Of a stretch of 64,000 nt of DNA, positions 6,063 to 50,734 are shown piece after piece. Location: IMG/VR virus record IMGVR_UViG_3300033150_001690, one strand, 5' to 3'. Each line of letters opens with the position of its first letter. Within the stretch, counting starts at the first letter, position 1. Under the pieces are notes generated by a model. The model saw nothing but the letters and a program-made list of their open reading frames with translations, was not told the DNA's origin and did not search any database. Origin of the DNA: an uncultured virus (IMG/VR IMGVR_UViG_3300033150_001690) (taxonomy: Duplodnaviria; Heunggongvirae; Uroviricota; Caudoviricetes). A program made the translations under genes and the position numbers.

Positions 6063-6510
6063 AAGAGTAGACTTCACTTATTTCTTTATGTTTCTATTTC
6101 AGTTTATCCTGTATAGAATGGATGGTCTGGTCTACTCTACGTTAGATAAAATAGGGTGGGAGTGGGGTCTGACCTGGTGGATCTTTATGTTTCTTATTGT
6201 ATTAGTAACTTCTTTTATGTTGTTTTCCTCCTGTGGTGATAAACAAGGTCTCTGGTACTTTATATTCTTTCTTTTACTATATATTGGAGACATTCAAAAT
6301 CTGTTCTATATCTTTAACATTCCTACACCTGTGTTTTTAAGAGATCCAAACTTCATTTATTTCTGGAATATCTTTTATATTCTCTTTGGATACCCTTGGA
6401 CCTTAAAAGAAGAAATATGTTTGTGGGTTCTAATTTGGTCTCTTTTAGCAGGTATTTATTTATATATGAGAAGAAGATTTAACATTTATGGGTTGATCAA
6501 GAATGAGTAG
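6049..6510 (+). CDS. Multi-pass membrane protein
   Basis: About four hydrophobic helices, F/W/I/L-rich. Confidence 0.75.
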   Translation: MSLLRRVDFTYFFMFLFQFILYRMDGLVYSTLDKIGWEWGLTWWIFMFLIVLVTSFMLFSSCGDKQGLWYFIFFLLLYIGDIQNLFYIFNIPTPVFLRDPNFIYFWNIFYILFGYPWTLKEEICLWVLIWSLLAGIYLYMRRRFNIYGLIKNE

Positions 6511-7816
6511 TATAAGAGACTTCTTATTTGGTAGAAAGAAGGAGGACTGGACCGTTCAGGCATTAGAGTCTAAATCAATAGAAGATATTAAGACTTTAAT
6601 GTCTCTTAGAGTTGGTGAAAAACAGGCAAAAGAACAATATAAGAAGTTATATGAGAAGGATGGTCTTACTTTTATGTTAGTTAATTACTTAGATCATAAG
6701 ATAGCAGGTCAAGGGTTCTATTTTGATGGAGATAGTGACCTGGTCAACAAACTAGAAGAGTGGTCTGAAGAAGTTGGTCTAAAGTTTGTTCTTAAGCATA
6801 TAGTTAAAGATGCTATTATCTATGGTACGGCCTGGATAGAACTAGTGTTGTCAGAAGATTATAGAAATATAGAAGACTTCAGGTTCTTTGATCCTACTAA
6901 AATGGACTTTGCTAGAGATAATTCAGGGAAGATTAAGTTAGATGAAAACGGAGAACCTCTTTGTATAGTACAAGAAGAAGGTCTTAAGAAGAGAGAATGG
7001 TACAAAGATCGTATAGAAGAAAATGGTAAAATAATAATTAAGGCAGGAAGAGGAGATGATTTCAGGAAACATATAGCATACTTCAAACTAGAAAGTTATG
7101 GTGATGATCCTATAGGTCTAAGTCTAATAGCTCCTATTTACAGGTCTGCTATTATTAGAAGTAATATATCAGACATGGTTGGAGAAGCAGCATATAGAGG
7201 GGGAGGTATAGTAGCATATTTATCAGGTAATCCTCCAGAAGAAGTAAAGAAGAAATTAGCAGAAGACCTCAAGAATATTACTTCTAAAAATATCTTTGTA
7301 TTTAGTGATAAGATCAGATTAGACCTAGTTCCTATTCCTGATACACGAGAGAGAGAAGGTCTTATTTATTATCTAGCAGATGAAGAAGCATCCACATTTG
7401 GAGTACCATTGGATGTTCTAATGTGTGGAGTAAAATCATATAGACAAGATCTTCCTTCTAAGTTAGCAGATATGGAAGCTAGAATATCTTCTTATCAGGA
7501 ATACATAGCATACCAGTTTAATAAACAGGTCATAGATTTTCTCCTTCGTTTATGGAAGACAGATAAGAAGGCTAAATTGGTCTTTAGAACACAATCTCCA
7601 AGTATTAAGTTATCTAGATCTAGAAGAATAGCTACATTAGCAAGAAGAGGTCTAATAAGATATGATCCACAATTAGAACTTCACTTAAGAAGAGAAGAAG
7701 GTCTTCCTGTTAAGTTTGTACAGTTATCTCTTAAACAATGGCAGGAAGAGAAGAAGTCTCCCGAAGAGATTAAGTCAGATGTAGAAATTATAGCGAAGGA
7801 AGAAGATGAAGTTTAA
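6503..7816 (+). CDS. Portal protein
   Basis: 437 aa; DAIIYGTAWIELV, YG-x3-GLSLI-x-P and FGVP-x2-L motifs typical of HK97/Mu-type portals. Confidence 0.85.
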   Translation: MSSIRDFLFGRKKEDWTVQALESKSIEDIKTLMSLRVGEKQAKEQYKKLYEKDGLTFMLVNYLDHKIAGQGFYFDGDSDLVNKLEEWSEEVGLKFVLKHIVKDAIIYGTAWIELVLSEDYRNIEDFRFFDPTKMDFARDNSGKIKLDENGEPLCIVQEEGLKKREWYKDRIEENGKIIIKAGRGDDFRKHIAYFKLESYGDDPIGLSLIAPIYRSAIIRSNISDMVGEAAYRGGGIVAYLSGNPPEEVKKKLAEDLKNITSKNIFVFSDKIRLDLVPIPDTREREGLIYYLADEEASTFGVPLDVLMCGVKSYRQDLPSKLADMEARISSYQEYIAYQFNKQVIDFLLRLWKTDKKAKLVFRTQSPSIKLSRSRRIATLARRGLIRYDPQLELHLRREEGLPVKFVQLSLKQWQEEKKSPEEIKSDVEIIAKEEDEV

Positions 7817-9029: not shown

Positions 9030-9074
9030 TCTTAGAGAAAGATTTAAAACTAAGAAGAGATAAAGAGTTAGTAG

Positions 9075-9371: not shown

Positions 9372-9381
9372 GAGGGATAAT

Positions 9382-9600
9382 ATGGCTCATGCAGAAATTT
9401 GTCCTGTATGTAACGGAAAAGGAGTTATAGAAGAGGAAATAGGTTCTACAGGTGAAAAGTCTATTAAAGTCTGTCATGGTTGTGGAGGAAGAGGATGGAT
9501 AGAAGTGAGAGATGATCCTTGTTATTCTCCATGGTACCCTTATACTATAGCGTGGACTGTAAAAGGAAGTCAGAATTATGATCCAAATATCAGTAAATGA
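9382..9600 (+). CDS. DnaJ-type CxxCxGxG zinc-finger protein
   Basis: CPVCNGKG and CHGCGGRG. Confidence 0.8.
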   Translation: MAHAEICPVCNGKGVIEEEIGSTGEKSIKVCHGCGGRGWIEVRDDPCYSPWYPYTIAWTVKGSQNYDPNISK

Positions 9601-19522: not shown

Positions 19523-20170
19523 ATGAATGAAGCAATAATTCTTGCTGGAAAAGATAATTGGAGACTTAAACCAGATATATGGATCCCTAAACCAATGCTG
19601 AAGTTAAATAACTTTACTCTTCTAGAACAACAGATCAGGTGGTTGGTTAGTAACAAGATAGAACATGTCATAATTGCTTCTGATCAGAAGTATGACATTC
19701 ATCCTTTATTGGAGAGTTATGTGACCTGGTCACTAGAAGATCATAGAGGGACAGGAGGAGCAGTTCTAATTGCTAGTGATTATTTAGAAGGAGACAGTTG
19801 TTATATAATGAACGTAGATGATGTAGTCTTCTATAATCCTTTATTACTAACACTTCCTGACTGTCAGGCTAGAATATTGGTCTCTAAGCCTAGGATAGGA
19901 TATGGTAGAGTGGAGCTTAGACATGACCTGGTCTTAGGTTTTAAGGAGAAACCACTATTAGACTTCTATGTTAGTTGTGGTCACTACTTCTTCAAGAAGC
20001 ATATTATTAACAGGTATTTTCCTGACTATGGTAACTTAGAAGATAAGGTCCTTCCTGAACTAGCCCATAGAAGGATATTAAATGCTATGCGTTTAAGAGG
20101 AAAATGGATCACTATTAACACAATGAAGGACTATCTCCAGGTAAAAGAGATCTTTAAGGAGAAAGTTTAA
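19523..20170 (+). CDS. Sugar-phosphate nucleotidyltransferase
   Basis: AIILAG-x4-RL-x-P...PKPM, GTGGA, FKEKP. Confidence 0.9.
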   Translation: MNEAIILAGKDNWRLKPDIWIPKPMLKLNNFTLLEQQIRWLVSNKIEHVIIASDQKYDIHPLLESYVTWSLEDHRGTGGAVLIASDYLEGDSCYIMNVDDVVFYNPLLLTLPDCQARILVSKPRIGYGRVELRHDLVLGFKEKPLLDFYVSCGHYFFKKHIINRYFPDYGNLEDKVLPELAHRRILNAMRLRGKWITINTMKDYLQVKEIFKEKV

Positions 20171-20191
20171 GAGGTCCTTCTTCTTCACTTC

Positions 20192-22063
20192 TTGAATTGT
20201 TCTATAGGAGGTATTGTTTATATGCGAGAGCATAGACCTGAGTTTATTAATAAAATAGTTACACAGAAGTTAAGTCAACTAGTAGAGGAGTATTTATATC
20301 AAAAGACCTGGAAGGTAAGAGAGAATGCTAATACAACATACTCTCTTCAGGCCTTAAACTTTCACATTTCTTCTGAAGTAATAGAGCAATATTGGTTAAA
20401 TTCAATATATAATGATCATACAGAATTGAAGAAGGCTCACTTGTCAGGAGACTTCCATATTCATGATCTACCAATTTTAGGACCATACTGTGTAGGATGG
20501 GATCTTCAAGATCTATTAATGACAGGTTTTACAGGAGTCCCTGGTAAGATAACTTCTAAACCTGCTAAACACTTTAGATCAGCACTAGGGCAAGTAGTGA
20601 ACTTCTTCTTCACTCTTCAAGGAGAAGCAGCGGGTGCACAGGCCTTTAGTAACTTTGATACTTATTTAGCTCCATTTATTAAATATGATCGTTTATCATA
20701 TAAACAGGTCAAACAGTCTCTTCAGGAGTTTCTATTCAACATTAATATTCCTACTAGAGTAGGATTTCAATCTCCTTTTACTAATATTACTCTAGATCTT
20801 GAAGTACCTAAGTTTATGAAGGATGAACCTGTTATAATAGGAGGTAAAGTAATGGATGCTCCTAGAAGTGACTTCCAAGAAGAAATGAATATGTTTAACA
20901 AGGCATTGTTTGAACTAATGGAGGAAGGAGACGGAGTAGGAAGAGTATTCACATTTCCCATACCTACTATTAATATCTCCAAAGACTTTAATTGGAATAA
21001 TGAAGTAACAGAGGCATTATTTAGAATGACCAATAAGTTTGGTATTCCCTACTTCGCTAACTTTGTTAATTCTAATCTTAATCCTGAAGATGTAAGAAGT
21101 ATGTGTTGTCATCTTCGTTTAGATAAGAGAGAGTTGAAGAAGAGAGGAGGAGGTCTCTTTGGAGCTAATCCATTAACAGGAAGTATAGGTGTAGTTACTA
21201 TCAATATGCCTAGAATAGGATATTTATCTAAAGATGAAGACGACTTCTTTGAAAGATTAGATCATTTAATGATCTTAGCTAAACAGGCATTAATGATCAA
21301 AAGACAACTTCTAGAGAAGTTAACAGATCAAGGTCTCTATCCATATTCTAAGTTTTATCTTCGTATGATTAAACAGAGATATAAAGAATATTGGAAGAAC
21401 CACTTCAATACTATTGGTCTAGTTGGGATGAACGAGGCCTGTCTTAACTTTCTGGGAGAACCAATATGTGAAAATACTGCTCTTCAGTTCTCTATTAAAG
21501 TGTTGAATTACATGAGAAGAAGACTTCAGGACTTCCAACAGGAGACCGGAGATATATTTAACTTAGAAGCTACTCCTGCTGAAGGAGCTAGTTATAGACT
21601 AGCTAAACTAGACAAGGAGAAGTATCCTAAGATAATAGTAGCTAATGAGAAGTACCTGTCTAAAGGATATAAGCCATTTTATACTAACTCTACTCAACTT
21701 CCTGTTGATCTAGAATTAGATGTTTTTGATGCTATAGCTCTTCAAGAAGAACTTCAAACATTATACACTGGAGGTACAGTATTTCATATTTATCTAGGAG
21801 AGAAGCTATACTCCTGGAGATCAACTTCTACTTTGATTAAACAGGTAGTGACCAGGTCACGAATTCCTTACTTTACATTAACTCCTACATTTAGTATCTG
21901 TCCTCAACATGGCTATATTTCAGGAAAGCACAACAACTGTCCTGGATGTGGAGCAAAATGTGAAGTGTACTCAAGAGTTGTAGGCTACCTGAGACCGGTT
22001 GACCAGTGGAATGACGGGAAACAAGCGGAGTTCTTTATTAGACATACCTTCGATCAATCATAA
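20192..22063 (+). CDS. nrdD: Anaerobic (class III) ribonucleoside-triphosphate reductase; start probably ATG 20222
   Basis: HIHDL, SMCC, EATPAEG, C-terminal Zn site and glycyl-radical motif YSRVVGYLRPV. Confidence 0.95.
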   Translation: MNCSIGGIVYMREHRPEFINKIVTQKLSQLVEEYLYQKTWKVRENANTTYSLQALNFHISSEVIEQYWLNSIYNDHTELKKAHLSGDFHIHDLPILGPYCVGWDLQDLLMTGFTGVPGKITSKPAKHFRSALGQVVNFFFTLQGEAAGAQAFSNFDTYLAPFIKYDRLSYKQVKQSLQEFLFNINIPTRVGFQSPFTNITLDLEVPKFMKDEPVIIGGKVMDAPRSDFQEEMNMFNKALFELMEEGDGVGRVFTFPIPTINISKDFNWNNEVTEALFRMTNKFGIPYFANFVNSNLNPEDVRSMCCHLRLDKRELKKRGGGLFGANPLTGSIGVVTINMPRIGYLSKDEDDFFERLDHLMILAKQALMIKRQLLEKLTDQGLYPYSKFYLRMIKQRYKEYWKNHFNTIGLVGMNEACLNFLGEPICENTALQFSIKVLNYMRRRLQDFQQETGDIFNLEATPAEGASYRLAKLDKEKYPKIIVANEKYLSKGYKPFYTNSTQLPVDLELDVFDAIALQEELQTLYTGGTVFHIYLGEKLYSWRSTSTLIKQVVTRSRIPYFTLTPTFSICPQHGYISGKHNNCPGCGAKCEVYSRVVGYLRPVDQWNDGKQAEFFIRHTFDQS

Positions 22064-27309: not shown

Positions 27310-29211
27310 ATGACTATGGAAGAAGAGAATCAAGATCCTGTAGAACGTGTTCTTTCTTATGGTTGGGAGGTATTGAAGATTCTAGCATGGCCTTTTGAGA
27401 ATTCATTAGATGTTTTTGAAGTACGAGGTCTAATTATAAAACTATCTTCTTTATTTCACTCTGTTAGGACAATAACATTTGGAGTATTATCTTTCATCTC
27501 CAAACTAAAGGCCTTTAGGAGACAAATTATAGGATACCTCTATTCTCTTGGTAGTTTGAGGACAACTATTTTAAGAATGGTCAACTCTGTTCTTGAATAC
27601 TCTAGTATTTTGCTTACTTCTAAACATCTATTAAAAGTAATTAGAAGTTATCAGCTAGGTCTGAAGTATTTTGTTAGAGTGTTCAGAAGTAGCCTTACTA
27701 GACTTCTGAATAGTGTGAGATCTTTCAGATCTCTGATGGTCTCTTCTAAATATCTTTTAGAGATACTTGTTTGTCGTTCATTAACACTCAAACACTATTT
27801 GAAGGTATTTATTTCTGGCCTGATAACTTCTTTTGATAATGTTTTAGTATTTATTTCCCAACTTCTTAAATTTATTTCAAATATTAGAGTTAATGTTGGC
27901 CTTTCTATTGTGTCTAGATTTCTTCTTAGACAATTCAAAAGTAAGATATTAAGATATGTCTATTCTCTTAAAGAGTTAAAGATCAGGTTAATTGATTTAA
28001 CCCACAAGATATTAATTATCTCTAGTAATTTTATCTCTTCTAAATATTTAATTCAGACCTTTGTTGGAGCAATACTATCATTGTGGTTTATTATTCGATC
28101 TTTTAGATCTTCAATTACTTCTCTTCTTTTTTCAATTAGATCTTTTAGAAGTGGCATTGTTGGAGGTGAATATCTTCTAAGGAATTTAAAGACAACTGGC
28201 CTAAGAATAAAGCATTCTCTTATAGGTATTATATCTCAAGTGAAGTTACTTAATTATTTGGTTGGTAATGTCAGAGCTAGATTAGTTGGGACCATCTGGA
28301 GAGCATACGCTAGAGTATTCTTAAGCTTCAGGACTTCTTACGTACTTAGAGAAATATCTTCTAAGGTCTTGTCTATTTCACATCTCTTAGTAAGATATGT
28401 TATTCAGACAATAGGACAACTCCACAAAGTTTTAAGCTTAGTTGAAGTTTCAATAACCTCTTTATTCAGGCTTAAAGAACTAGTTTCAGTATTAACTAGA
28501 CTAAGCTATTCTATTTTAAGACTAGTATACAACGTTTTATCTTCTTTCTTCTCTGTCCTGATCTTTAAAATAAGAAGTCTCTCCTTTAATTGGCTATCAA
28601 GACTATTAAGTTCTAAAAGTAAAACATTGGTCTATGGTCTTAGAAGTTTTTCTTCTAGAGTTATCAGGATGATACATTCTCTACTTCAATTAGGAGTTAT
28701 ATTCAGAAATCTGTCTTCACTTTATAGTCTTGCTCAGATCAGATTAGTAGTACTCTCTTTAGTTTCTAATGTTAGATCTTTTGTTTCTAAGATGATCAGT
28801 CTTCTTCAGAAGAACTTCGGTCTTCTGTGGAGAACAGTGAAGATTCTCTATACTCTTCCAGGTCAAGTATTTAGATTATTCACGATCATCTTTTCAAACC
28901 TGAATCTAAAAAGTGCTCTAATAACTTCTTCACATAATGTTCTTCATAAGATTGACAATTTATTAAATATTATCTATGAAGTTCTAAAATATCAAATAGT
29001 TGCAATGGTCTTAGGTCTAGAGTATTCTATGGTAGGAGTATTGTTTAGAGTATTTAGAGCTTCTTATACTGTTATTTACAAGTATTTAGAAGTTTTAACT
29101 GTTCTTATTAAAACACGACCGACTTCTATCTTGGTCAAGTTGAAGGATAGGGCTAAGTTAGTAAAAGAGAAGTTAAACCAAACATTTAAAAAGATCATAA
29201 CAGAAAAATAA
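27310..29211 (+). CDS. 14-residue-repeat protein, probable fibre shaft
   Basis: Regular 14-aa period with an aromatic/His residue at a fixed position; 42-nt DNA repeat at 28097/28139. Confidence 0.65.
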   Translation: MTMEEENQDPVERVLSYGWEVLKILAWPFENSLDVFEVRGLIIKLSSLFHSVRTITFGVLSFISKLKAFRRQIIGYLYSLGSLRTTILRMVNSVLEYSSILLTSKHLLKVIRSYQLGLKYFVRVFRSSLTRLLNSVRSFRSLMVSSKYLLEILVCRSLTLKHYLKVFISGLITSFDNVLVFISQLLKFISNIRVNVGLSIVSRFLLRQFKSKILRYVYSLKELKIRLIDLTHKILIISSNFISSKYLIQTFVGAILSLWFIIRSFRSSITSLLFSIRSFRSGIVGGEYLLRNLKTTGLRIKHSLIGIISQVKLLNYLVGNVRARLVGTIWRAYARVFLSFRTSYVLREISSKVLSISHLLVRYVIQTIGQLHKVLSLVEVSITSLFRLKELVSVLTRLSYSILRLVYNVLSSFFSVLIFKIRSLSFNWLSRLLSSKSKTLVYGLRSFSSRVIRMIHSLLQLGVIFRNLSSLYSLAQIRLVVLSLVSNVRSFVSKMISLLQKNFGLLWRTVKILYTLPGQVFRLFTIIFSNLNLKSALITSSHNVLHKIDNLLNIIYEVLKYQIVAMVLGLEYSMVGVLFRVFRASYTVIYKYLEVLTVLIKTRPTSILVKLKDRAKLVKEKLNQTFKKIITEK

Positions 29212-29553: not shown

Positions 29554-32500
29554 ATGAAGTTGCATTTCATTGGAAGCAGAGGATATATTGAAGAGAAGTC
29601 TTCTTCTCATAAGAACAGATCTTCTTTATTGCTAGAAACAAATAGAAGTAGAATTCTAATAGATTGGGGAGACGAATACAGTCCTGAAGAACTGAAGAAG
29701 ATCAATCCTGATGCTATTATAATTACTCACAGTCACCCTGATCATTTGTTTGGTCTGAAGAAGTTAAGGTCTTCCTTAGATATTCCTGTCTATATTTCTG
29801 AAGATAGTTTGAAGAGTGAATACTTCAAGAAGGAAGATTATCAATATGTTAACTTTACTTCTTTTAAGAGGTTAGATCATTTTAAGATACTAAATCTAGA
29901 AATGTTCACTGTTCCTATTCTTCATAGTTCTAAAGCTCCTAATCAGGCATTGATTGCTCAGGGCGAAGCAGGAAGACATAAGATATGTTATGCTTCGGAT
30001 ATTCTATCATTTCCTGTAAAATATAGACAGAAGTTACTAGGTTGTGATGTGTACATTGGAGATCTTTCTACTTTGAAGAAGGAGGGTCTTATAAGATATG
30101 ATAAGAAGAGAGATGAACCTATTGGTCATGCTTCTCCTCATACTCAGTTATCCTGGTGTAGTAAAGCAGGAGTTAGAACTGTAATATTTACTCATTTAGG
30201 ATCTGAACCTATTAAAATGGGAGATGACCAGGTCACTAAAAAGTTACAGGAGTTATCTAAAGAGTATTCTTTAAATATTATATTAGCAAAAGATGGTATG
30301 GTGATAGATCTGGACCATCTAGATCTTAAACCTTCTGATGTAGAAGCTATTACTCCTAAGAAGACTCCAACTCCACAATATGGTCTTATAATGGTCTCTC
30401 CTCATGGAAGATGGATTTATCAAGGAGTTAAGAAGGGAATAGTGAAGACAATTAAATTAAAAGAACATATTGGAGAACCATTGTATTTAATATCAGAAGG
30501 TATAGTATGGGGAGAGATCACTCTATATCCTCCTAAAGAGATAGATGAGAAGGAGTTTAAGAAATTATACAAATATCACAGGATATCTGAAGAAGAGAGA
30601 GAAGCATGGTCTAAGAAGGAGAAGAGATGGAGAGAGTTTCCATTATATTATTACACTTTTAGTTTTAAAAAGTATCCTAGACCAATACCAATTAGGTTGA
30701 AGGTGAAAGGACCACAGGTCTTTGTAAAAGCTTCTAATATTGAATTTCCTAAGACCAAACAACTAAACGATCTAGAACTAGTATACTATCATTCTCTAAG
30801 CCACTTATATCAGGAAGAATTAGGAGATCCATTCTATAACCTACACAGAGATATTGCTCTAGAGATGATCAGAAGAGGTATGTACCATAGTAGTGAGTCG
30901 CTATGTGATCGAGAAGTAGAACTAATAAAAGAAGAAGGACCTGAGTGGGTCAAGGCCTACATTAAGCGTCTTCCTAGATATACTAGAGCACAAGTAGGAG
31001 ATGACTTCAGGATAGTATTAGGCTGGTATTCTTCTTTAAAAAGAGGTAAGAAGTTATTCAAGGGAGAAGAGAAGGTCCCTATTAGAGAACAGGATTGTAA
31101 GACCTTAATACTAGCTATTATAAAAGAGCTGGTTAGAAGAGGAGCTACCTTCAATAGACCAGAGACTTATAAGAAGTATGCTAGAGAGTTGTTTGAATGG
31201 GCCATTAAACAAATAGGAGAAGATAAAATATCATGGAAGAAGGAATTATCTCTTAAACTCCCTGAAGGTTTTCAGGTCTCTGATATAGATATACCATTTG
31301 TTAAGAAGTTATCTAATGAAGAATTGGAAGAGTTATGGAAGTGGCTTCATAATAAATGGAGAGAAGACACAGGAGGTAAGAAGGTCCCGGAGAACTATCT
31401 TAATGCAAATGTATTTGTTCAGATAGAACGTTTTAAGAGAGGTCTAATAGATGAGACTTATGAAGATAAAGATAAACTAGATGAAGATGTTAGGTATGCC
31501 TGGCAGGAGTATGGTCTTCCTGGAGAGAAGATAAAGGCCAGAACCATAGTTAGAGAACCTCTTCCTGCTCTAGAAGAAGAACCTGAAGAGATCACTCTTC
31601 CTATTGTATTAGAAGCATTTAGAAATGCTGGTCCTGTTATAGTAAAAGGATATCCATATGGAGCATATCTATGTGGAAGACTAGTTAATGAAGGAAAGAT
31701 CCCTAAAGATCATGATATAGATTTGGCTATTAGACAAAGACCAGATCCTAGATTAATAGTAGCGTTAAAGAGAATGTCTCCTAAATGGTTGTTTAAAAGG
31801 TTACATCCGTTCTTCGATAAAGGAGCAGCAGGTATTGGATGGAGTGTTCCTATTTATGGATATAGTCTTAATCCTCTTCCTAAGGAGTTAATGAAGAAGG
31901 GCTTCTATCCATTTCCTTCATATCTAGAGAAGAAAGTAGATCCATGTGGAAGAATAGTAATAGGAGTTAAACCTAAGAGTGGTTTTGGGAAGAATGAGTT
32001 CTTTGACATAGATGAGATGTGGGAGAAGTGGGGAAGTAGGTTTATAGACCATGGAATACTAGTACAGGAGAAAGTAGATGGAAGAAGAATGATGTGTTAT
32101 AAATGTGGAGATAGGATCAGGATAATAACAGAAGATACTCATAGAGACAGATCTAAGCTCTTCCCTGAGATAGTTAATGAACTGAAGAAGATTCCTGGAG
32201 ACTGGATACTAGATGGAGAAATGGTAGCATATGAATTACCTCCTAGGATAGAAGGGAAGGATGCTAGGACCAAACGGATGATAGGCGAACATATACCTAG
32301 AGAGGACACGGCCCAAGTGACGACCGGACAACCTGATGAAGAATTTAGGAAGAAGATAGTTCATGTCTTCTATGACATACTATATTGGAAGGAGTCACTG
32401 GTCAATAAGGGATTTGAAGAACGATATGAGATATTGAAGAAGGCCATTCCTAGACATGCTAAATATATTGATGTGGTTAGAGGAGAAGAAGCAAATAACA

Positions 32501-35196
32501 TGAAGGACTTCTATAGACTAGTAGACAAATACAGAAGAGTTAGTGGATCAGAAGGAGTGGTCTGTAAGGTATCAGATGCTCCTTATCCTATAAAATATAC
32601 AGGTGAAAATAGAACAGACTTCATGTGTAAGTTGAAGAATCTTAAAGAGATAGATGTTATGGTCTTAGATATTCAACAGAAGAAGACAAAAGAAGGTAAA
32701 CTTCTTCCTACTTATATCTATGTGTGTGGATTCCTTCTTCCTGAAAACAAAGTAGAAGAGTTCTCGAAGAACAGAGTAGTAGAATATAATAGTAAACACT
32801 ATTGTATCCTAGGAAGGGCCTATGGTACTAATGTGAAGTGTAAGAAGGGAGACATAGTAACTATAATGCCTATTAGAATAAGAGAGTATAAAGATAAACA
32901 AAATAAGAGATACTTCACCTGGATGTTTCCATATTTCAAGGAGAAGAGACCTGACAAACATGAAGCAGATACGTTAACTACTGTAGAACGTATAGCTAAG
33001 ATAGGAACTGGACCTGCTCCTTCTAAGAAGAGAGAATTAGAAAAAGATGACCAGATCACTGTTACTATTAAACTAGATCCATGTCCCTTCTGGAATGATC
33101 CAGATATATGTCCTCTTCTAAAAAGATTTAGATTTCCTAGAGATGAATTAAGTAATGTAATAGTAGAACAGGAGATCCTTAGATTTCCTATAATATGTCC
33201 ATTAGCTAAGGTCTTTAAGTGTAGATTTGTAAAGGACTATTACTATAAGGTGATACCTGTAGCAGAGTATTCTTCAGAATTATCTGATGGAGACATAGAT
33301 ATTAATGAGTTACTTCTTCCAGAATTGGCCAAGAAAATAATCTTACAAAAGTATATGGAATGTCCATGTAAAGAGGAGAGTTTTGTGATGCAAAGTCATC
33401 GTATCGGCATTACTCCTGGTCATAAAGCTGAAGACCCTGGAGAGACCTGGTCACAACACTGTGACTTCAGGATGAAGACAAATGGATATCTAGTTGGATG
33501 GAGTATAGTAGGAGGTCATAAAGGAGATGAAATGGGTCCAGAGAAATTCTTGAAGAATATAGGGAAAGGTTTTAGAGCAGAGACGAAAGCGAGACAACCA
33601 TTGGTCTGGATGGATGTTCAGGGAAGATTTAAACCTGGAGAAGTAGGAGCAGGAATACATACTGCAGGAGAGATGTGGATCCAAACTAAAGGAAAAGTAA
33701 GATTTGGAGCACAGAAACCATACTTCCATGAATATTTCCTGAAGGATGATAAATACTTTAAAGACTGGACTAGAGTTATTATTAGGGCCATTAATGTTCC
33801 TAAGATATCTCCTGAGACCAAAGTGAAGACTCCTCATAAGGAGTTAATGTGGAGATTTATGATCCCTAAAGAACAAATGCCATATACTATAAGCAATAGA
33901 GCTATGAAGGAAGGATGGATACCTCCTAAGAGTTGCAGAACACCATTCCCTGAAGAGTGGGTAAAGAAGAAGTGGCCTGAACAATATGCTAAATGGGAGG
34001 AGTATATGAAGAGTAAGAAGATAGAACTATCTAACATTAACTATACTTTTAGTATGCACAGTTATAGAGGACCAGTTCATGTTAGAGCAATGTGGAGAAG
34101 AGCATGGTATCTAATGTTAGATGATAAAGGAGAAGGTAAAGTAAGGATCTTCAGAATACATGAGTTTCTTCCTGTAGAGAAGCAGGGAGTAGCTATAAAC
34201 GAAGGGAGAGACTCTAGGAAGTATATGTCCTTCGAAGGAAAGACCAGACCTGATTCTAGATTTAACCCTAATGAGAAGTTAGTAGGTGAGATGAAGATCA
34301 TCTCTTCAGGAAAAGTCTCATACGACAGTAAAATAGAAAATGGTAAAGAAGTTATTCATTTAAAGTTTCCTTCAGGAACATTGAAGGGAGAATGGATACT
34401 AGAACAAGAGGAGAAGGGATCAGATATCTATACTATTATACAGGCCCAAGAAGAATCTCTAGAACTAGGAGGAGTAAAAGCACATTTTGTCTATCATAAA
34501 CATATTATAGGAGATAGATACCACTTCGATCTAAGATATGTGAAGGAAGGAGATAATGTTGTTAATGAGTACAACTTACATGAAGATTTAAGAGAGAAGG
34601 ATATAGAAGAACCTGTTCAAGTAGTGAAGAAAACCTGTTCTGATATATCATGGATGCATATTAAGAAGCCTAGAGAAGTAAGATATGTTGGTCCTTTGAA
34701 GACTATAGTAGAACCTATAGATGAAGGAGACATGCTGATAATAGAGGAGAATCCTGACTTTATTTCTTATAAGTTAAATGGTAAGATCTTAAAAGGATAC
34801 TATATTGCTAAGAAGACACCTGAAGGGTGGATCTTTGAGAAGGCTAGACTACCTAAGACAGGTCTAAGTGGAGAAGGTAACCCTAGAGTTGGACCATTTA
34901 GGAAGTTCGTAATAAAAGAGAAGAAGAACTGGGATCACTTTATAGTTTATATTTATGACTTCAGGGAGTTTACTAGATGTGTCTCTCCTGAGAAGGTTAA
35001 GAAATATCTTCCTAATCTGAAGATCCCTGAAGGAGTAGAAGTAGGAATATGTTTGTATCCTGTTCCAGGTCGTATTCATCATGTTAGAGTGGCATATGTT
35101 ATCTTTAAGAAGGACAAGTGGTCCTATGAAGATGCTGAGAAGTGGATAAGAAAGAACAATCTCCATAAATGGGATGGAGTTTTAATTAGAGAATAG
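29554..35196 (+). CDS. 1880-aa polyvalent protein: MBL hydrolase, ASCH, nucleotidyltransferase-like, ATP-dependent DNA ligase, LigD-type 3'-phosphoesterase domains
   Basis: THSHPDH; GLIMVSPHG-x2-I-x2-GVK; LCG...DIDL; ligase EKVDG (K840), LDGE, FYDIL, EGVVCK, KLK; PE motifs FVMQSH...HCDFRM and FVYHKH...HFDLRY. Confidence 0.88.
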   Translation: MKLHFIGSRGYIEEKSSSHKNRSSLLLETNRSRILIDWGDEYSPEELKKINPDAIIITHSHPDHLFGLKKLRSSLDIPVYISEDSLKSEYFKKEDYQYVNFTSFKRLDHFKILNLEMFTVPILHSSKAPNQALIAQGEAGRHKICYASDILSFPVKYRQKLLGCDVYIGDLSTLKKEGLIRYDKKRDEPIGHASPHTQLSWCSKAGVRTVIFTHLGSEPIKMGDDQVTKKLQELSKEYSLNIILAKDGMVIDLDHLDLKPSDVEAITPKKTPTPQYGLIMVSPHGRWIYQGVKKGIVKTIKLKEHIGEPLYLISEGIVWGEITLYPPKEIDEKEFKKLYKYHRISEEEREAWSKKEKRWREFPLYYYTFSFKKYPRPIPIRLKVKGPQVFVKASNIEFPKTKQLNDLELVYYHSLSHLYQEELGDPFYNLHRDIALEMIRRGMYHSSESLCDREVELIKEEGPEWVKAYIKRLPRYTRAQVGDDFRIVLGWYSSLKRGKKLFKGEEKVPIREQDCKTLILAIIKELVRRGATFNRPETYKKYARELFEWAIKQIGEDKISWKKELSLKLPEGFQVSDIDIPFVKKLSNEELEELWKWLHNKWREDTGGKKVPENYLNANVFVQIERFKRGLIDETYEDKDKLDEDVRYAWQEYGLPGEKIKARTIVREPLPALEEEPEEITLPIVLEAFRNAGPVIVKGYPYGAYLCGRLVNEGKIPKDHDIDLAIRQRPDPRLIVALKRMSPKWLFKRLHPFFDKGAAGIGWSVPIYGYSLNPLPKELMKKGFYPFPSYLEKKVDPCGRIVIGVKPKSGFGKNEFFDIDEMWEKWGSRFIDHGILVQEKVDGRRMMCYKCGDRIRIITEDTHRDRSKLFPEIVNELKKIPGDWILDGEMVAYELPPRIEGKDARTKRMIGEHIPREDTAQVTTGQPDEEFRKKIVHVFYDILYWKESLVNKGFEERYEILKKAIPRHAKYIDVVRGEEANNMKDFYRLVDKYRRVSGSEGVVCKVSDAPYPIKYTGENRTDFMCKLKNLKEIDVMVLDIQQKKTKEGKLLPTYIYVCGFLLPENKVEEFSKNRVVEYNSKHYCILGRAYGTNVKCKKGDIVTIMPIRIREYKDKQNKRYFTWMFPYFKEKRPDKHEADTLTTVERIAKIGTGPAPSKKRELEKDDQITVTIKLDPCPFWNDPDICPLLKRFRFPRDELSNVIVEQEILRFPIICPLAKVFKCRFVKDYYYKVIPVAEYSSELSDGDIDINELLLPELAKKIILQKYMECPCKEESFVMQSHRIGITPGHKAEDPGETWSQHCDFRMKTNGYLVGWSIVGGHKGDEMGPEKFLKNIGKGFRAETKARQPLVWMDVQGRFKPGEVGAGIHTAGEMWIQTKGKVRFGAQKPYFHEYFLKDDKYFKDWTRVIIRAINVPKISPETKVKTPHKELMWRFMIPKEQMPYTISNRAMKEGWIPPKSCRTPFPEEWVKKKWPEQYAKWEEYMKSKKIELSNINYTFSMHSYRGPVHVRAMWRRAWYLMLDDKGEGKVRIFRIHEFLPVEKQGVAINEGRDSRKYMSFEGKTRPDSRFNPNEKLVGEMKIISSGKVSYDSKIENGKEVIHLKFPSGTLKGEWILEQEEKGSDIYTIIQAQEESLELGGVKAHFVYHKHIIGDRYHFDLRYVKEGDNVVNEYNLHEDLREKDIEEPVQVVKKTCSDISWMHIKKPREVRYVGPLKTIVEPIDEGDMLIIEENPDFISYKLNGKILKGYYIAKKTPEGWIFEKARLPKTGLSGEGNPRVGPFRKFVIKEKKNWDHFIVYIYDFREFTRCVSPEKVKKYLPNLKIPEGVEVGICLYPVPGRIHHVRVAYVIFKKDKWSYEDAEKWIRKNNLHKWDGVLIRE

Positions 35197-35238: not shown

Positions 35239-35784
35239 ATGTCATGGGCCAATATGAGAGATAAAATTATATCTATTCTAACTATGGATGATGGAACAAT
35301 GATCAACTTGCCTAGGTTCTACAAGAAGGTAAGTGAAGGATATGGTTTTGCTATTAGTAAACGATTTGATTCTCTAGGAGCAGGAGAAACCATCTCCTTC
35401 TTCTTCCAGAATCCTTCAGGTTCAGGGAGAATAGGAAATATAATAGATGTAGAAGTAGTAGGTGGAGCTGAACTAGAAGTAGATGTTTATAAAAATAATA
35501 CTCTAAATACTGGAGGTACTACTTTACAAGCTTTAAACTTAAGACCTTCTTCTACTATTCAAAATTCGTTAATAGTTGAATATGGAGGAAATTATACTAA
35601 AGGCACTTTAATATATAATATGGTTGTTCCTGGAGGATCTAAACAATTTGCAATTGGAGGAGCAGTATCTTTAGGTGAAGCTGTAATTTTAGATCCAGGA
35701 GTGAACTTCTTGTTAGACATGATAAATAAATCCGCATCAGACTGTTCGGCTAGTGCTAAAGTAGTATGGTGGGAGGATCCCTAG
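35239..35784 (+). CDS. Probable virion protein
   Basis: Beta-rich and G/N-rich; lies in the head module. Confidence 0.5.
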   Translation: MSWANMRDKIISILTMDDGTMINLPRFYKKVSEGYGFAISKRFDSLGAGETISFFFQNPSGSGRIGNIIDVEVVGGAELEVDVYKNNTLNTGGTTLQALNLRPSSTIQNSLIVEYGGNYTKGTLIYNMVVPGGSKQFAIGGAVSLGEAVILDPGVNFLLDMINKSASDCSASAKVVWWEDP

Positions 35785-35802: not shown

Positions 35803-37350
35803 ATGATAATTTGTAAAATAAACAAGGTGGTTAAAGTGAATGAGTCTATTCTTCAAGAATTATTAGCGGAGAATGCTATGTTAAGGGAGAAGTTAGACCA
35901 GAGAAGATCAGAACTATCTTCCAGATTTGTTATTCTTCAGGAAAAACCATTGAAGATCCATGGAGTATTAATAGCTGAAGGGGTATGGAAGGGGGTACTA
36001 TATGACTATAATGAAATGAAGAAGTCTAAAGACAAGTTCTTAAGTCTTCCATTGAAGGTCCAACATGGTCATAGTGAAGACTTTGGAGATAGAAGTGTAG
36101 GAAAGATCACTAAAGTCAAAGCAGAAGATCTTTTAAAGTCACTAACATTTGAAGCAGAAGTAACAGATCCTAAGGCTATAGAACTAGTGAAGAATGGTAC
36201 ATTAGATGCTGTCTCTATAAAGGGATCATTTGAGTTAGTAGATACTTCTTCTACTCCACCTAAAGGAGTTAATTATACACCTGAAGAAGTTAGTTTAACA
36301 CCTTCTCCTGCATGTGAGTTCTGCCAGATATTTAATTATGAATTATCTAAGAAATGTGGAGAATTGTTCTCTAAAGAGCAATATTTAAATAATAAGACTT
36401 CCATTCAAGAAGTAGGTGATCAGAAAATGGAGCTAAATGAGAATGAAATTTACATAGGAGAAGACGATGTTCTAGTGTTTCCTGAACTAACAGAAGAAGA
36501 CCAAGAAGGAGAGTTTGAGATTGTTAAAGAGAAGGATTTTAAGGAATTAGCTAAGAAGAAGGCTGTGAAGGTTAAACCAGGAGTGTATCCTACTAAGGTT
36601 AAGAAAGTAGTTGTTAAGAAGGGATCTACTGTACCTAAGTATCCTTATTATGGTTATTATCCATATGGATATTGCTACTATTACTACTACCCAGGGTATG
36701 GATATCCAATGGAGAAGTTATCTGAAGAAGAGATCGTAGACATTCTTCTTGAAGGAGATTATAGGACATTCATGAAAGAATGTATGAAGTCAGGTAAAGA
36801 CATGAAGACCTGTGCTAAAGAGTGGAAGGAGAAGGCAGGTAAATACCCTGCTCCTGTGAAAGGAGAAGAGGCTAGTAAGGAGGAAGGGAACTGGCCTGAA
36901 CTAGAACTAGCTGAGATCAAATGTCCTGTATGTGGAAAGGTCTTTAAGACCAAGAAGGAGTTCTTGAAACATTGGGAAGAGAAACATGCTGCTAAGTATG
37001 GAGAATATGGTCAGGTAAGGAAGTTAATTAGAGACCTTAAAGAGAAGCCAGAACTAAAAAAGGCACTAAGAAAACATTTTGAACTGTCTGAAGAGACTCC
37101 TAAAGAAGAGTCTAAAGAAGAAGTTAAACAAGAAGAACCTAAAAAAGAAGAAGTAAAGAAGGAGGAAGAGAAACATGAAGAGACTCCTACACAGGAGAAG
37201 GAGAAGGTTGAGGAGAAGACTCAGGAGACTCCTAAGACAGAGAGTGTACCTGAACCTCCGAAGAAGAATATAGATGAAATAATTAAAGAACTAACTTCAC
37301 CTGAAAAAGCAGCTGAACTTCTAATAGCTTCTAGCAGGAAGGAAGACTAA
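35803..37350 (+). CDS. Prohead protease-scaffold fusion (start probably GTG 35836)
   Basis: IAEGVW, VQH, VG-x-I, AVSI and EVSL-x3-PAC motifs; acidic/Lys-rich C-terminus; upstream of MCP. Confidence 0.82.
   Translation: MIICKINKVVKVNESILQELLAENAMLREKLDQRRSELSSRFVILQEKPLKIHGVLIAEGVWKGVLYDYNEMKKSKDKFLSLPLKVQHGHSEDFGDRSVGKITKVKAEDLLKSLTFEAEVTDPKAIELVKNGTLDAVSIKGSFELVDTSSTPPKGVNYTPEEVSLTPSPACEFCQIFNYELSKKCGELFSKEQYLNNKTSIQEVGDQKMELNENEIYIGEDDVLVFPELTEEDQEGEFEIVKEKDFKELAKKKAVKVKPGVYPTKVKKVVVKKGSTVPKYPYYGYYPYGYCYYYYYPGYGYPMEKLSEEEIVDILLEGDYRTFMKECMKSGKDMKTCAKEWKEKAGKYPAPVKGEEASKEEGNWPELELAEIKCPVCGKVFKTKKEFLKHWEEKHAAKYGEYGQVRKLIRDLKEKPELKKALRKHFELSEETPKEESKEEVKQEEPKKEEVKKEEEKHEETPTQEKEKVEEKTQETPKTESVPEPPKKNIDEIIKELTSPEKAAELLIASSRKED
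36427..37350 (+). CDS. Nested in-frame scaffold protein (internal start M209)
   Basis: TTTAAAT at 36384-36390 and RBS GGTGAT at 36415-36420 ahead of in-frame ATG 36427. Confidence 0.6.
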   Translation: MELNENEIYIGEDDVLVFPELTEEDQEGEFEIVKEKDFKELAKKKAVKVKPGVYPTKVKKVVVKKGSTVPKYPYYGYYPYGYCYYYYYPGYGYPMEKLSEEEIVDILLEGDYRTFMKECMKSGKDMKTCAKEWKEKAGKYPAPVKGEEASKEEGNWPELELAEIKCPVCGKVFKTKKEFLKHWEEKHAAKYGEYGQVRKLIRDLKEKPELKKALRKHFELSEETPKEESKEEVKQEEPKKEEVKKEEEKHEETPTQEKEKVEEKTQETPKTESVPEPPKKNIDEIIKELTSPEKAAELLIASSRKED

Positions 37351-37351
37351 A

Positions 37352-37576
37352 ATGTCTGAAGAAGTTCTCCAAAAACTTCTAGAGAAAATAGAGAGCTTAG
37401 AGAAGCAAATACAGGAACTTCAGAAGGAGAAGAAGACTATTAACCTTCAGAGACCTAGAAAAGTATCTCTTCAAGATCTAAAGATAGAGGAAGAGTTGTC
37501 TACTGAAGTAGAGAACCATATTGATCAGGCAGTAGATCTTCTTCTCAAATATGCTAAAGCGGTAGACTTCTCCTAA
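37352..37576 (+). CDS. Small coiled-coil protein, possible second scaffold
   Basis: C-terminus DQAVDLLL resembles the scaffold C-terminus EKAAELLI. Confidence 0.5.
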   Translation: MSEEVLQKLLEKIESLEKQIQELQKEKKTINLQRPRKVSLQDLKIEEELSTEVENHIDQAVDLLLKYAKAVDFS

Positions 37577-37646: not shown

Positions 37647-38705
37647 ATGAAGAATGTTATTCAAGAACTAGACCTTGCTCCTTCAGATGTTACAGTGATT
37701 ACTCCAAAAGTTATTAGTGGAGTAATTGAAGAGATTAGGAGACACAAACGTGTATGGGCACAGTTCTATAAGACCAACAGAGACCTGGTCAACAATGGAG
37801 GTAAAGAGATAGAGTTTCCAAAGAAAGAGTCAGGAATAACTGCTACTTTTGATGTGTCTGCAGGTACAGGGATATCAGCAAGTAATATGACCTACTCTGC
37901 TGTTACAATAACAGTGAAGAAAGGTGGAATAGGTCTTGGCTTTCAGGGAGAAGCTATTAGACAGGCCAATAGAGATGTTCTTGCTGATGCTATTAAAGAA
38001 GCAGGTGAAGTATGGGCTGATACATTAGATATAGTTGCTTTAGAAGCAATGTTTCCTTCTGTAACTGTAGCAGAGACCTCCGGAGCTAGTACTGTTGCTG
38101 CTTCATTCCCAGTAGTTGGTATTAAAAGTTACAATGGTGGATTCTCTAAGATAATAAACTATGCTTCTTCTTCAAGCATAGTATTTACTAATAAAGGGAC
38201 AGTTACATACTGGTATGCACCTCAGACCAATGCTGAGGGAGATACTATTGGAGCTAGGAGAATAACTTCTACTGCAGGAAGCTTTAGTGCTAAAGACATA
38301 TTGAATGCTAGAAGTGACATTATAGCCAATAAGTTTGAACCTGAAGTGCTTGTAATTCATCCTGATGTATTGACAGATATTCTATATGATCCAACAGTGA
38401 AGTTCCTGGAGAAATCAGTATACAAAGGTGAAGGAGAACTATACAATGCTGAACTGGGAAGAATATGGGATCTTAGAGTTATAGTTAGCAACAAATGTCC
38501 AAGATATGCTGCTGTGCTGATAGACCCAGGAGACCTTGGCTATGAAGTTATCAGAAAAGACCTGAAGTTGGTCAGAGATGAATACTCTGGTATGAGTATG
38601 GATGTGTTATATTTCTGGGGCTTTGGAGAACTCAACTATGGTGTGGTCAATGCTCAGGCATATGGAGTAGTTGCAATGCAAGGTACTCTAACAGAAGCTA
38701 ATTAA
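37647..38705 (+). CDS. Major capsid protein (HK97 fold)
   Basis: 352 aa; LVIHP, GELYNAELGRIWDLRVIVSN motifs; strong RBS; follows protease/scaffold. Confidence 0.9.
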   Translation: MKNVIQELDLAPSDVTVITPKVISGVIEEIRRHKRVWAQFYKTNRDLVNNGGKEIEFPKKESGITATFDVSAGTGISASNMTYSAVTITVKKGGIGLGFQGEAIRQANRDVLADAIKEAGEVWADTLDIVALEAMFPSVTVAETSGASTVAASFPVVGIKSYNGGFSKIINYASSSSIVFTNKGTVTYWYAPQTNAEGDTIGARRITSTAGSFSAKDILNARSDIIANKFEPEVLVIHPDVLTDILYDPTVKFLEKSVYKGEGELYNAELGRIWDLRVIVSNKCPRYAAVLIDPGDLGYEVIRKDLKLVRDEYSGMSMDVLYFWGFGELNYGVVNAQAYGVVAMQGTLTEAN

Positions 38706-48728: not shown

Positions 48729-49472
48729 ATGGAAGGAATTATTTCTCCTATAGAAAATGTTCGTATATATTTGAATGGTACATTACTTGTTCAAAAAGAA
48801 CATCATTCCTGGACCTCTTTAGGTCTGGATAGAGTAATGTATCTATTTCTAGGGTCTACTCAAGATGATGCTGAACATAAAGGAACTCTAACTTATCCCT
48901 TTGTTAAAGATAATACAGGAGTAGACCATGCTCTATCTTCTAATGTAACTAAAGAAGCCTCTCTTAATGTGTTGAAGTCTTATGGAGAGGGAGATGGAGG
49001 AATGACCATCGATGAAATAAAGATTAAGGGAGTATATGGAGGAACTTATATTACTTGGTCTATAATAGATATCCAAGACGTTACTGTACCTCCTGGCTGG
49101 AATTTTAGAGTAGAGTGGGAGAGTACATTTACAGGATCAGATTATACATCTGCTGGTCTTAATAAAATAGCTGATGATCTAGATGATCTCACTTCAAACC
49201 TAGGCTTTAAACCAAACAGTTTTGGACTTGTTCATTCAGGAGGTACTCAGTTAGTTGCAATTACTGAATATGATTATGAGATACCTGCTTCTAATACTAG
49301 AACTGTAATCTACAAAGGAAGCATTGGAACAGGAATAGCCTTAACTTCTATTAGCACTATTGAGTTAAGAAAGGACTCAAACATCTGGTCTTCTAAAAGC
49401 ATTACTCCGTTTGATAAATCATCTGATACTTCTCTAGTAATAGAACATAGAAATACTATTACACCTGCTTAG
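48729..49472 (+). CDS. Virion tail/baseplate protein with internally duplicated domain
   Basis: Two units (WTSLGL.../YTSAGL...) similar to the 48266 protein. Confidence 0.55.
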   Translation: MEGIISPIENVRIYLNGTLLVQKEHHSWTSLGLDRVMYLFLGSTQDDAEHKGTLTYPFVKDNTGVDHALSSNVTKEASLNVLKSYGEGDGGMTIDEIKIKGVYGGTYITWSIIDIQDVTVPPGWNFRVEWESTFTGSDYTSAGLNKIADDLDDLTSNLGFKPNSFGLVHSGGTQLVAITEYDYEIPASNTRTVIYKGSIGTGIALTSISTIELRKDSNIWSSKSITPFDKSSDTSLVIEHRNTITPA

Positions 49473-50734
49473 AGTATCTTATAGTAATAGGTATCTTCTT
49501 CATGTTCTTTATGAAGAGCTAACATTAATGCATCTACATAATCATCATCCTTCTTAGTATCCCAGTTATACTTTCTTAGTTGTCTGACCAAGTCAACGTT
49601 CTCTTCAGGTATTCTTATTTTATTCTGATGAAATAGTATCTTCATTCTGGTCTGCATTTGTACTTTAGACTGATTAAATGCTACAGGGACTACATTAAGA
49701 CCTCTAGCTTCTAAACGTTGGTTCTCTCCTACATCTTCTGCATCTGCATATATGACCTGAACATGATATTGTTTGTAGATCTGTTCTATACGATCATGTA
49801 TGGTCTCGAAGTCTTCTCGTCTCCATGCTGCACTATATAATATATTGAATACTCCATTTACTTCTTGAACTACTACAATAGCTGTTGGATGGTCCCATCC
49901 CCAGTCACAACCTATAACAGGAGGTCTACCATAAGGATTATATTGTATCTTCTTTACTCCTTTTACGGCCTGTTTAAGATCACTAAATGGTATTAATATA
50001 TTGGTTTCTTTAGCATATGGTCTTCCTTCCCAGAATACTTCAAACATATCTTCAGGAAGTTTACTAGCCTCCATATACTTCTCTAAAGATATATTAGGAC
50101 ATTCCTTCGCTGACCAATGAAAACGCTTCCATTCAGGATATTTGTCTTCATCCTCCCACATCTCTACAAATAAGGAGTTATACTCCATAGGAGTACCTGA
50201 TAAGATAATAAGATCCTTCTTAGATTGTGCTACTATTCTAAAAGCATCTCTTATTATGAAGTCTCCTGCTAGTACTGCTTCGTCTATTATCACTATATCA
50301 CAATGTTTACCCTGTATGGCCTTTAAACTGTTAGGTACTGCTAGTATCTCTGATCTGTTCTTTAAACGTGTTATAGACATTAGTGGTTCTCCTTCTACTT
50401 CTTCTGTTAGAATAGGATTATCCTTAAAGGCTAATCTAACATACTCGTATAGATTTCTGGCCTGGTCTCTACTACCAGATATTATTATAATAGAATAAGG
50501 ATAATGATCAAACTTACTCTTTACTACAGAATAATATAATGCTATACAGGCCAGTAACTTGGTCTTACCTGTTCCTCCTGCTCCCATTAATAGTATTCGT
50601 TTAGGATTTTGAAGAATATGCTTCAATACTCTCCTCTGATATGGATAAGGATCTTGATTAAAGACATCTTTAAAGAACGAAGAAGGATCTTTACTCCATT
50701 TCAAGAATTGCAGTGCTCTAAGAACTTGATCCAA
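49469..50734 (-). CDS. terL: Terminase large subunit
   Basis: PYPYQ, Walker A GAGGTGKT, Walker B VIIDEA, SGTP, RNase H-like nuclease GCDWG...DDYVDA. Confidence 0.93.
   Translation of the reverse strand: MDQVLRALQFLKWSKDPSSFFKDVFNQDPYPYQRRVLKHILQNPKRILLMGAGGTGKTKLLACIALYYSVVKSKFDHYPYSIIIISGSRDQARNLYEYVRLAFKDNPILTEEVEGEPLMSITRLKNRSEILAVPNSLKAIQGKHCDIVIIDEAVLAGDFIIRDAFRIVAQSKKDLIILSGTPMEYNSLFVEMWEDEDKYPEWKRFHWSAKECPNISLEKYMEASKLPEDMFEVFWEGRPYAKETNILIPFSDLKQAVKGVKKIQYNPYGRPPVIGCDWGWDHPTAIVVVQEVNGVFNILYSAAWRREDFETIHDRIEQIYKQYHVQVIYADAEDVGENQRLEARGLNVVPVAFNQSKVQMQTRMKILFHQNKIRIPEENVDLVRQLRKYNWDTKKDDDYVDALMLALHKEHEEDTYYYKIL

Follow-up and report, generated by a model that had tools for sequence, protein, structure and literature searches.

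Why does an enzyme of a tailed virus carry, in a linker between two of its domains, a copy of the N-terminal arm (N-arm) of the virus's own major capsid protein (MCP)? The question is raised by a 64,000-nucleotide stretch of DNA (the window) from an uncultured virus of the Caudoviricetes, IMG/VR record IMGVR_UViG_3300033150_001690. A first-pass annotation, made from the sequence alone, had placed two similar 14-residue peptides at 30319-30360 and 37668-37709, both on the plus strand, and these positions do translate to the peptides that it quoted. They are residues 256-269 of an 1880-residue protein (open reading frame, ORF, 29554-35196) and residues 8-21 of the 352-residue MCP (ORF 37647-38705). 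As the annotation had counted, 11 of the 14 residues are the same, with 30 of the 42 nucleotides, and exactly the five synonymous codon differences that it listed are present. It was also right in placing the first peptide C-terminal to a metallo-beta-lactamase domain (22-214 by Pfam, 26-254 by PHROG). The linker separates this domain from an ASCH-like domain, and 7.3 kb lie between the peptide and the capsid gene downstream of it. Searched in six frames with as many as 6 substitutions allowed, the window showed these two copies and no third.

On the window data alone the match is suggestive and no proof. It ranks top in an all-against-all comparison of 14-residue segments among the 57 proteins of the window, the runner-up having 9/14. 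With the MCP compared to the 56 other proteins over 200 shuffles, the best identities were 7, 8 and 9 in 58, 129 and 13 shuffles, respectively (observed 11), and 20 shuffles of the whole proteome gave a maximum of 10/14, in 2 of the 20, and never 11. The ungapped BLOSUM62 score of the match is 56, about 3 standard deviations above the mean of the shuffles (44.8, standard deviation 3.9) and inside their range (maximum 58). The test against shuffled proteomes, which the annotation had proposed, supports the match by identities, which lie beyond all shuffles, and supports it only modestly by the BLOSUM62 score. It is the comparative tests that make the match firm.

The resemblance between the two peptides is not chance, as judged from the alignments of both families, and we regard the observation as firm. 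The stronger of two profile tests used the peptide of 15 enzyme-family proteins, searched against 6393 ORFs. This profile matches 13 of 47 capsid N-termini at E <= 0.01 (6 of them at <= 1e-4, the best at 8e-8), always N-terminally, and it matches the N-arm of the window's MCP at E 2.1e-6. All other matches at E <= 0.01 are enzyme-family proteins, and the best match in the reversed database has E 0.66. With the opposite profile, 21 N-arm positions of 43 capsid proteins, 1668 six-frame ORFs were searched. Ranked behind the capsid proteins themselves, the next seven distinct matches are all the peptide of the enzyme family at the homologous place, with E from 0.0075 to 1.2 (0.027 for the window's own enzyme peptide), and the best E in the reversed-database control is 6.2.

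The enzyme peptide also follows the capsid protein from virus to virus. We paired the peptides of six viruses of the closer clade first, and of eight more found by scanning with remote ASCH-like proteins and by searching whole viral records. Among the six, the true pairing scores highest of all 720 pairings by BLOSUM, and 3 of the 720 reach it by identities. Over the 14 pairs the summed identities of cognate peptides are 107 against a permutation mean of 74.4, a value reached in 0 of 200,000 permutations (3 of 200,000 by BLOSUM). For the closer clade, now seven pairs, the observed value is reached by 116 and 24 of 100,000 permutations. Across the 14 viruses each capsid N-arm is, at the level of sequence, closer to the peptide of its own partner than to those of other viruses. 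Capsid and enzyme peptides of the second clade alike have another residue for the Thr of the T-P-K core, the same one in L055 and L058 (where single relatives have to be told apart, they carry our own handles, L or P with a number). The free-standing enzyme protein of L046-L048 repeats the capsid N-terminus at its own start, with the register from Met1 unchanged and 10 of 22 residues identical (residues 5-26 against 5-26). The annotation had asked whether the peptide is conserved and co-varies in related viruses. It is conserved in relatives and does co-vary with the cognate MCP, so that the lack of conservation and of co-variation named there as a point against its proposal was not found.

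Conservation at the level of protein, which the annotation had deduced from the codon differences, holds across relatives. In 10 viruses 24-37 of the 54 nucleotides of the two blocks are the same, and about half of the identical residues share their codon. With nucleotide identity this low and only about half of the codons shared, recent DNA copying is excluded as the cause.

The protein from which the peptide would derive is well recognizable as an HK97-fold capsid protein, as the annotation had labelled it. PF25209 (Phage_capsid_4) matches with 39.8 bits against a cutoff of 27 (E 8.2e-10), and five PHROG families of major head proteins match as well. The AlphaFold2 (AF2) model has a predicted local distance difference test score (pLDDT) of 79.2. 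Its Foldseek matches (E 6e-11 to 4e-8, probability 1.00) are led by encapsulin shells, including 7s2t with a bound targeting peptide, and comprise the capsids of HFTV1, SU10, HK97 and T5-like phages. In the model residues 1-11 are coil and residues 12-34 a helix, with pLDDT 50-71 over residues 1-20. As the helix begins at residue 12, the shared peptide takes in the coil and the opening turns of the N-arm helix. Few parts of the MCP are as well conserved over 43 relatives as the N-arm, T19 being invariant and E7, L8, P20 and K21 present in at least 90%.

A protein search with the MCP gave 46 relatives, some named from Ignisphaera and Thermoprotei genome bins. A scan of viral contigs with the single MCP sequence found no relative and an alignment-based scan was needed; scans with the MCP alignment yielded 6 viral, 37 metagenomic and 2 genomic loci, L044 being the same contig as L011 (a Thermoprotei bin). 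The MCP has no match in 50,697 deposited phage records. Tailed viruses of this Thermoprotei-type archaeal group are known here from metagenomes alone, and the Ignisphaera and Thermoprotei bins hold the nearest named relatives of the MCP. One relative, L059, encodes two capsid-protein paralogues (17836-18909 and 19536-20609) on the same strand about 0.6 kb apart, and in the second of them Gly replaces the Pro of the T-P-K core.

In the enzyme family, the peptide stands at the homologous place in 7 of the 10 distinct loci with an enzyme homologue (the window, L003, L011, L015, L019, L020 and L021). An exhaustive search with residues 245-569 of the large protein gave 534 proteins. Among the 150 of these matches that were listed, close relatives have the peptide N-terminal to the ASCH-like domain, and distant relatives have a variant with the Thr of the T-P-K core replaced. 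What precedes the peptide differs: it may be the beta-lactamase domain, a small domain with Cys (in the small proteins of L015, L019 and L021), a His-x-His-x-His segment, or no more than a few residues past Met1. On the other side, a short stretch rich in Pro or Lys leads into an ASCH-like or His-rich domain. Within the peptide, conservation is highest at the P-K pair. From these arrangements the peptide behaves as a portable linear motif, apparently in a flexible region, on otherwise differently built proteins. No third protein family with the peptide was found; the best other match is a 981-residue protein in L002, L016 and L039 (E 0.075). The peptide-carrying gene directly precedes the genes of a protease-scaffold protein and of the capsid in L015, L019 and L021, and in 10 distinct loci these two genes have a homologue of the His-rich module immediately before them. 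The His-x-His-x-His segment, which takes the place of the beta-lactamase domain in L059 (9575-12976), P0057 and P0058, looks histidine-triad-like by eye and would suit a theme of DNA end repair.

Going by BLASTP of the 1880-residue protein against all ORFs of the fetched loci, this protein is a fusion of modules that relatives encode as separate genes. Three consecutive genes of L003 match its residues 256-536, 568-1231 and 1271-1880; module homologues lie on two genes in L005 and on one gene spanning 404-1879 in L002, and L011 has the full form with 1882 residues. Small proteins of 212-273 residues in L001, L015, L019, L020 and L021 match only residues ~370-530. The label of polyprotein given by the annotation fits in so far as the modules are separate genes elsewhere; it does not fit in the sense of a protease site recurring at each junction, as the motif stands at one junction only and by eye no copy was seen at the other two (~536-568 and ~1231-1271). 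For the modules behind the peptide, searching the PDB by sequence was unproductive, Pfam run on five pieces yielded no more than LigD_N below the threshold (E 0.0028), and Atlas gave nothing for the His-rich domain. P0047, P0048, P0052 and P0061 have insertions of several hundred residues at conserved positions of the ligase module, which by eye are intein-like with homing-endonuclease parts.

Two genes upstream of the capsid gene lies a gene for a 515-residue protein, whose predicted architecture is that of a protease-scaffold fusion with an assemblin-fold protease. It consists of an N-terminal helix, a domain of the assemblin/prohead-protease fold (~47-178), a Tyr-rich stretch, a zinc finger, an acidic linker and a hydrophobic tail. 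In every locus that extends far enough, its N-terminal ~185 residues are conserved ahead of the capsid gene. All 17 aligned sequences have H88 and S138, the candidate catalytic His and Ser. The core of the AF2 model has pLDDT 93-96, and its top 10 Foldseek matches in the PDB are all herpesvirus proteases (E 2.3e-4 to 8.2e-4, probability 1.00, template modelling score 0.42-0.45). The hydrophobic tail, about the last 20 residues after the long acidic linker, is conserved in 24 relatives, the second clade having a different but related version. The zinc finger is of the C2H2 type (residues 373-395) and falls just below the Pfam cutoffs. At its N-terminus the protease-scaffold of L012 (8369-9616) has the ~60-residue domain with Cys that stands before the peptide in L019 (48% identity, E 3e-21), a fusion which hints that the enzyme protein and the protease-scaffold work together.

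Some minor features of this protein were also seen. It has a run of Tyr/Gly/Pro-rich residues, and its zinc-finger segment recurs in C-terminal stretches of L029, L024, L014 and L105. In L015 the gene is split into two overlapping ORFs (8217-9134 and 9121-9606) by a frameshift, a sequencing error or a programmed shift. In L050 (8991-10868 and 11858-12898) the capsid N-arm has no P-K pair, the ASCH-like protein has no peptide, and the protease-scaffold ends in a Tyr/Lys-rich stretch with the usual tail absent, a single case. The idea that the capsid N-arm loses its P-K pair together with the scaffold tail was dropped, as L050 and L057 agree with it, L085 does not, and there are only these three cases.

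Table 1. Positions of the discussed features in the window (nucleotides) and in the large protein (residues)
Feature	Position	Strand	Basis or remark
Portal protein, Mu type	6503..7816	+	PF06074, E 2.6e-10
1880-residue multi-module protein	29554..35196	+	Pfam, PHROG, Atlas lead; borders from relatives with separate genes
Metallo-beta-lactamase domain	residues ~22-254		Pfam, PHROG
Capsid N-arm peptide copy in the large protein	30313..30366	+	18-residue block, residues 254-271
ASCH-like domain	residues ~278-400		weak lead only (Atlas 0.89)
His-rich domain	residues ~400-536		
ATP-dependent DNA ligase module	residues 568-1231		ligase 829-1028
C-terminal module	residues 1271-1880		weak LigD 3'-phosphoesterase-like match
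181-residue protein	35239..35784	+	phrog_5335; between enzyme and protease-scaffold genes; without the peptide
515-residue protease-scaffold protein	35803..37350	+	17-sequence alignment, AF2, Foldseek, 24 C-termini
74-residue ORF	37352-37576		between protease-scaffold and capsid genes
Major capsid protein, HK97 fold	37647..38705	+	PF25209, PHROG, AF2 model, Foldseek
N-arm peptide of the MCP	37662..37715	+	18-residue block, residues 6-23
Large terminase subunit	49469..50734	-	PF17289 (E 2.1e-17), PF03237

As for the role of the peptide, we tentatively favour the reading that it is a capsid-targeting signal, which would mimic the capsid N-arm and engage the protease-scaffold, possibly with cleavage. 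A short linear motif would have been copied from the N-arm of the virus's own MCP onto an accessory enzyme family, whose modules appear to be nuclease-type, ASCH-like, His-rich, DNA ligase and phosphoesterase-like. Since the peptide resembles the capsid N-arm, it should be bound by whatever recognizes the N-arm in procapsid assembly. The likeliest partner would be the neighbouring protease-scaffold, which could bind by the conserved C-terminal tail, the protease domain or both. In this way the enzyme protein would enter the procapsid as cargo, and it might be cut there from its variable N-terminal domain. We infer this binding partner, the packaging and any cleavage. The annotation had proposed a cargo-loading signal, a shared maturation-protease site, or both, and because a protease-scaffold is encoded near the capsid gene each of these roles has a plausible partner.

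If this is true, a portable, co-evolving label taken from the capsid subunit would let enzymes be loaded into a capsid simply and in a manner that evolves easily. Such an address label would link the capsid-targeting sequences of phages with the cargo loading of encapsulins, and the peptide of ~18 residues would offer a handle for engineering thermostable protein containers.

Several observations weigh against a capsid-targeting signal that works through the protease-scaffold. The peptide is missing from the enzymes of three of the 10 enzyme-family loci (L001, L002 and L005) though their capsid N-arm keeps it, and is therefore dispensable for the enzyme family. In the second clade alone (seven pairs) 5,985 and 26,908 of 100,000 permutations reach the observed values, which is not significant, so that part of the overall co-variation is the difference between the clades and reflects few independent events. 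The protease domain belongs to no family at the level of sequence in Pfam (E <= 0.01), PHROGs, and single-sequence and profile searches of the PDB; Pfam at E <= 1 on the 17 aligned members gave no protease family either, and only the fold search named the domain. No copy of the peptide was found in any protease-scaffold ORF with either profile, at full length and E <= 1. The enzymes could also work in the cytoplasm, and their late-gene position could be due simply to when they are expressed. A complex prediction of the protease-scaffold (515 residues) with residues 236-400 of the large protein scored 0.00 in both runs and is not used as evidence either way.

The alternative that survives best, though we consider it unlikely, is that the peptide is only a recognition or cleavage site shared by two substrates of the maturation protease, which would trim the capsid N-terminus and free the N-terminal domain of the enzyme with no targeting involved. 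An assemblin-fold protease is indeed encoded near the capsid gene, and the peptide lies near the N-terminus in the capsid protein and the free-standing enzymes and at a domain border in the fusions. A hydrophobic-x-Glu-Leu pattern was noticed by eye in three places, namely where the capsid peptide begins, directly behind the protease domain and a few residues ahead of the scaffold tail; hydrophobic-x-Glu is, however, frequent by chance in these Glu-rich proteins, the pattern was judged by eye, and the Glu of the putative site is His in the window's own enzyme copy. There is a precedent in 80alpha, where a single protease, Prp, is reported to cut an N-terminal motif common to the capsid protein, the scaffold and the host ribosomal protein L27 (PMC5744158). 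Both cases have one sequence on a capsid protein and on non-homologous proteins. In 80alpha, however, the protease is of the host and the scaffold carries the motif, whereas here the scaffold is without it, the protease is viral with an assemblin fold and the cleavage is putative. A cleavage site also hardly accounts for ~18 residues that are conserved and co-varying, which is far beyond the known needs of prohead-protease sites, and neither the scaffold nor the two remaining junctions of the large protein have the full motif. If the shared site were nevertheless the answer, the peptide would define the specificity of an unstudied branch of assemblin-type proteases.

We rank next, as improbable, that the peptide docks directly on the MCP lattice, at the N-arm site of a neighbouring subunit such as one left empty around the portal vertex, and so fixes the enzyme to the inner wall. 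Co-variation with the cognate MCP would be expected if both peptides fit a pocket of that protein, and among the closest folds of the MCP are encapsulin shells, whose inner face binds cargo peptides. In 80alpha a strand of the N-arm is reported to join a sheet under the P-domain and later to lie under the E-loop of the neighbour (PMC5744158). However, the acceptor sites of a complete lattice are occupied by the capsid N-arms, and the AF2 monomer has the segment as a coil and the start of a helix, undocked and with only the moderate pLDDT given above.

We may also speculate, with rather little confidence, that these tailed viruses, which are associated with hyperthermophiles, package a DNA end-repair kit (nuclease-type, ligase and phosphoesterase-like modules) with the capsid N-arm mimic as its address label. 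The mimic would replace a capsid N-arm on the scaffold tail, or sit in empty acceptor sites around the portal. The enzymes would go out together with the DNA and, once in the new host, repair genome ends damaged by heat. Cargo loading would then rest on self-mimicry of a shell subunit.

It is less probable again, and quite unlikely in our view, that the two peptides are recognized by some other common factor unrelated to packaging, such as a chaperone, an enzyme modifying Lys or Thr, or a regulator that keeps the amounts of the two in step. For the N-terminal sequence shared in 80alpha, the authors of that study consider a common chaperone or regulation (PMC5744158). In the window many glycosyltransferases are encoded, and no part of the peptide is better conserved than the P-K pair. 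However, the Thr is replaced by hydrophobic residues across a whole clade, which argues against its modification, a host factor hardly explains co-variation that is specific to the virus, and the enzyme gene always lies in the block of head genes. Coincidence between two unrelated, separately conserved segments is very improbable and close to refuted by the profile and co-variation tests: on the window alone the BLOSUM score lies within the range of the shuffles, but the reciprocal profile matches reach E 8e-8 with clean reversed-database controls, cognate pairs co-vary, and one lineage has the identical register from Met1.

The capsid-targeting reading that we favour has its nearest known analogue in phage T4. 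The capsid targeting sequence (CTS) of T4 is N-terminal and is removed by the prohead protease. In both systems a short conserved peptide is found on differently built proteins. The T4 peptide is reported to direct internal proteins of various kinds to the scaffolding core of the prohead, and its fusion to foreign proteins leads to their packaging (PMC3012670). The difference is that the peptide described here copies the N-arm of the capsid protein itself, co-varies with the MCP, also occurs internally behind another domain, is presumably unrelated to the CTS in sequence, and that its packaging is predicted.

Herpesviruses offer a parallel for the proposed partner, as the C-terminal tail of their scaffold binds the capsid protein. 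Like the herpesvirus assemblin precursor, the 515-residue protein appears to have an N-terminal assemblin-fold protease, a long linker and a conserved C-terminal tail; unlike it, the protein has no membership in the family at the level of sequence and has an extra zinc finger and a Tyr-rich stretch. In the procapsid of 80alpha the C-terminal helix of the scaffold is reported to contact the N-arm helix of the capsid protein (PMC5744158).

The comparison with encapsulins, made in the annotation, stands as an analogy of function only. As in encapsulin systems, a short peptide is carried by an enzyme encoded near the gene of an HK97-fold shell. An encapsulin shell has no portal, terminase or tail, whereas the window belongs to a tailed virus with a portal (PF06074), a terminase (PF17289) and PHROGs for tail and connector proteins. 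To our knowledge, encapsulin cargo peptides, which direct an enzyme to the inside of the shell, dock into a shell pocket and are unlike the N-terminus of the shell protein. MuF and SPP1 gp7-type minor head proteins carry enzyme or toxin domains on a protein of the head module that is packaged with the DNA, and their attachment is by way of a folded, portal-binding MuF domain. Pfam gave no MuF domain here, and there is a capsid N-arm mimic instead. In the literature, which was searched mostly at the level of abstracts, we found no description of a capsid N-arm mimic on accessory proteins.

The remainder of the window gives the setting of these genes. The presence of a portal protein indicates a tailed virus. 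The portal gene lies ~30 kb from the capsid gene and the terminase gene on the opposite strand, an unusual and scattered order of head genes. The 181-residue protein encoded between the enzyme and the protease-scaffold has no BLASTP match in the fetched loci, and Pfam was uninformative for the large neighbouring proteins of L001, L015, L019 and L012. A 633-residue protein (27310-29211), which is highly repetitive and rich in Ser, Leu, Arg and Val, belongs to no Pfam or PHROGs family. A RadA/Rad51-type recombinase (1538-2539) and an NrdD-like anaerobic ribonucleotide reductase (20192-22063) are also encoded. Between 9597 and 20170 there are ~10 kb of genes of the sugar or cell-surface type, including several glycosyltransferases, a radical SAM/SPASM protein, a UbiA prenyltransferase, two epimerases and a nucleotidyl transferase, and this gene set suggests glycosylation of the virion or of the host surface.

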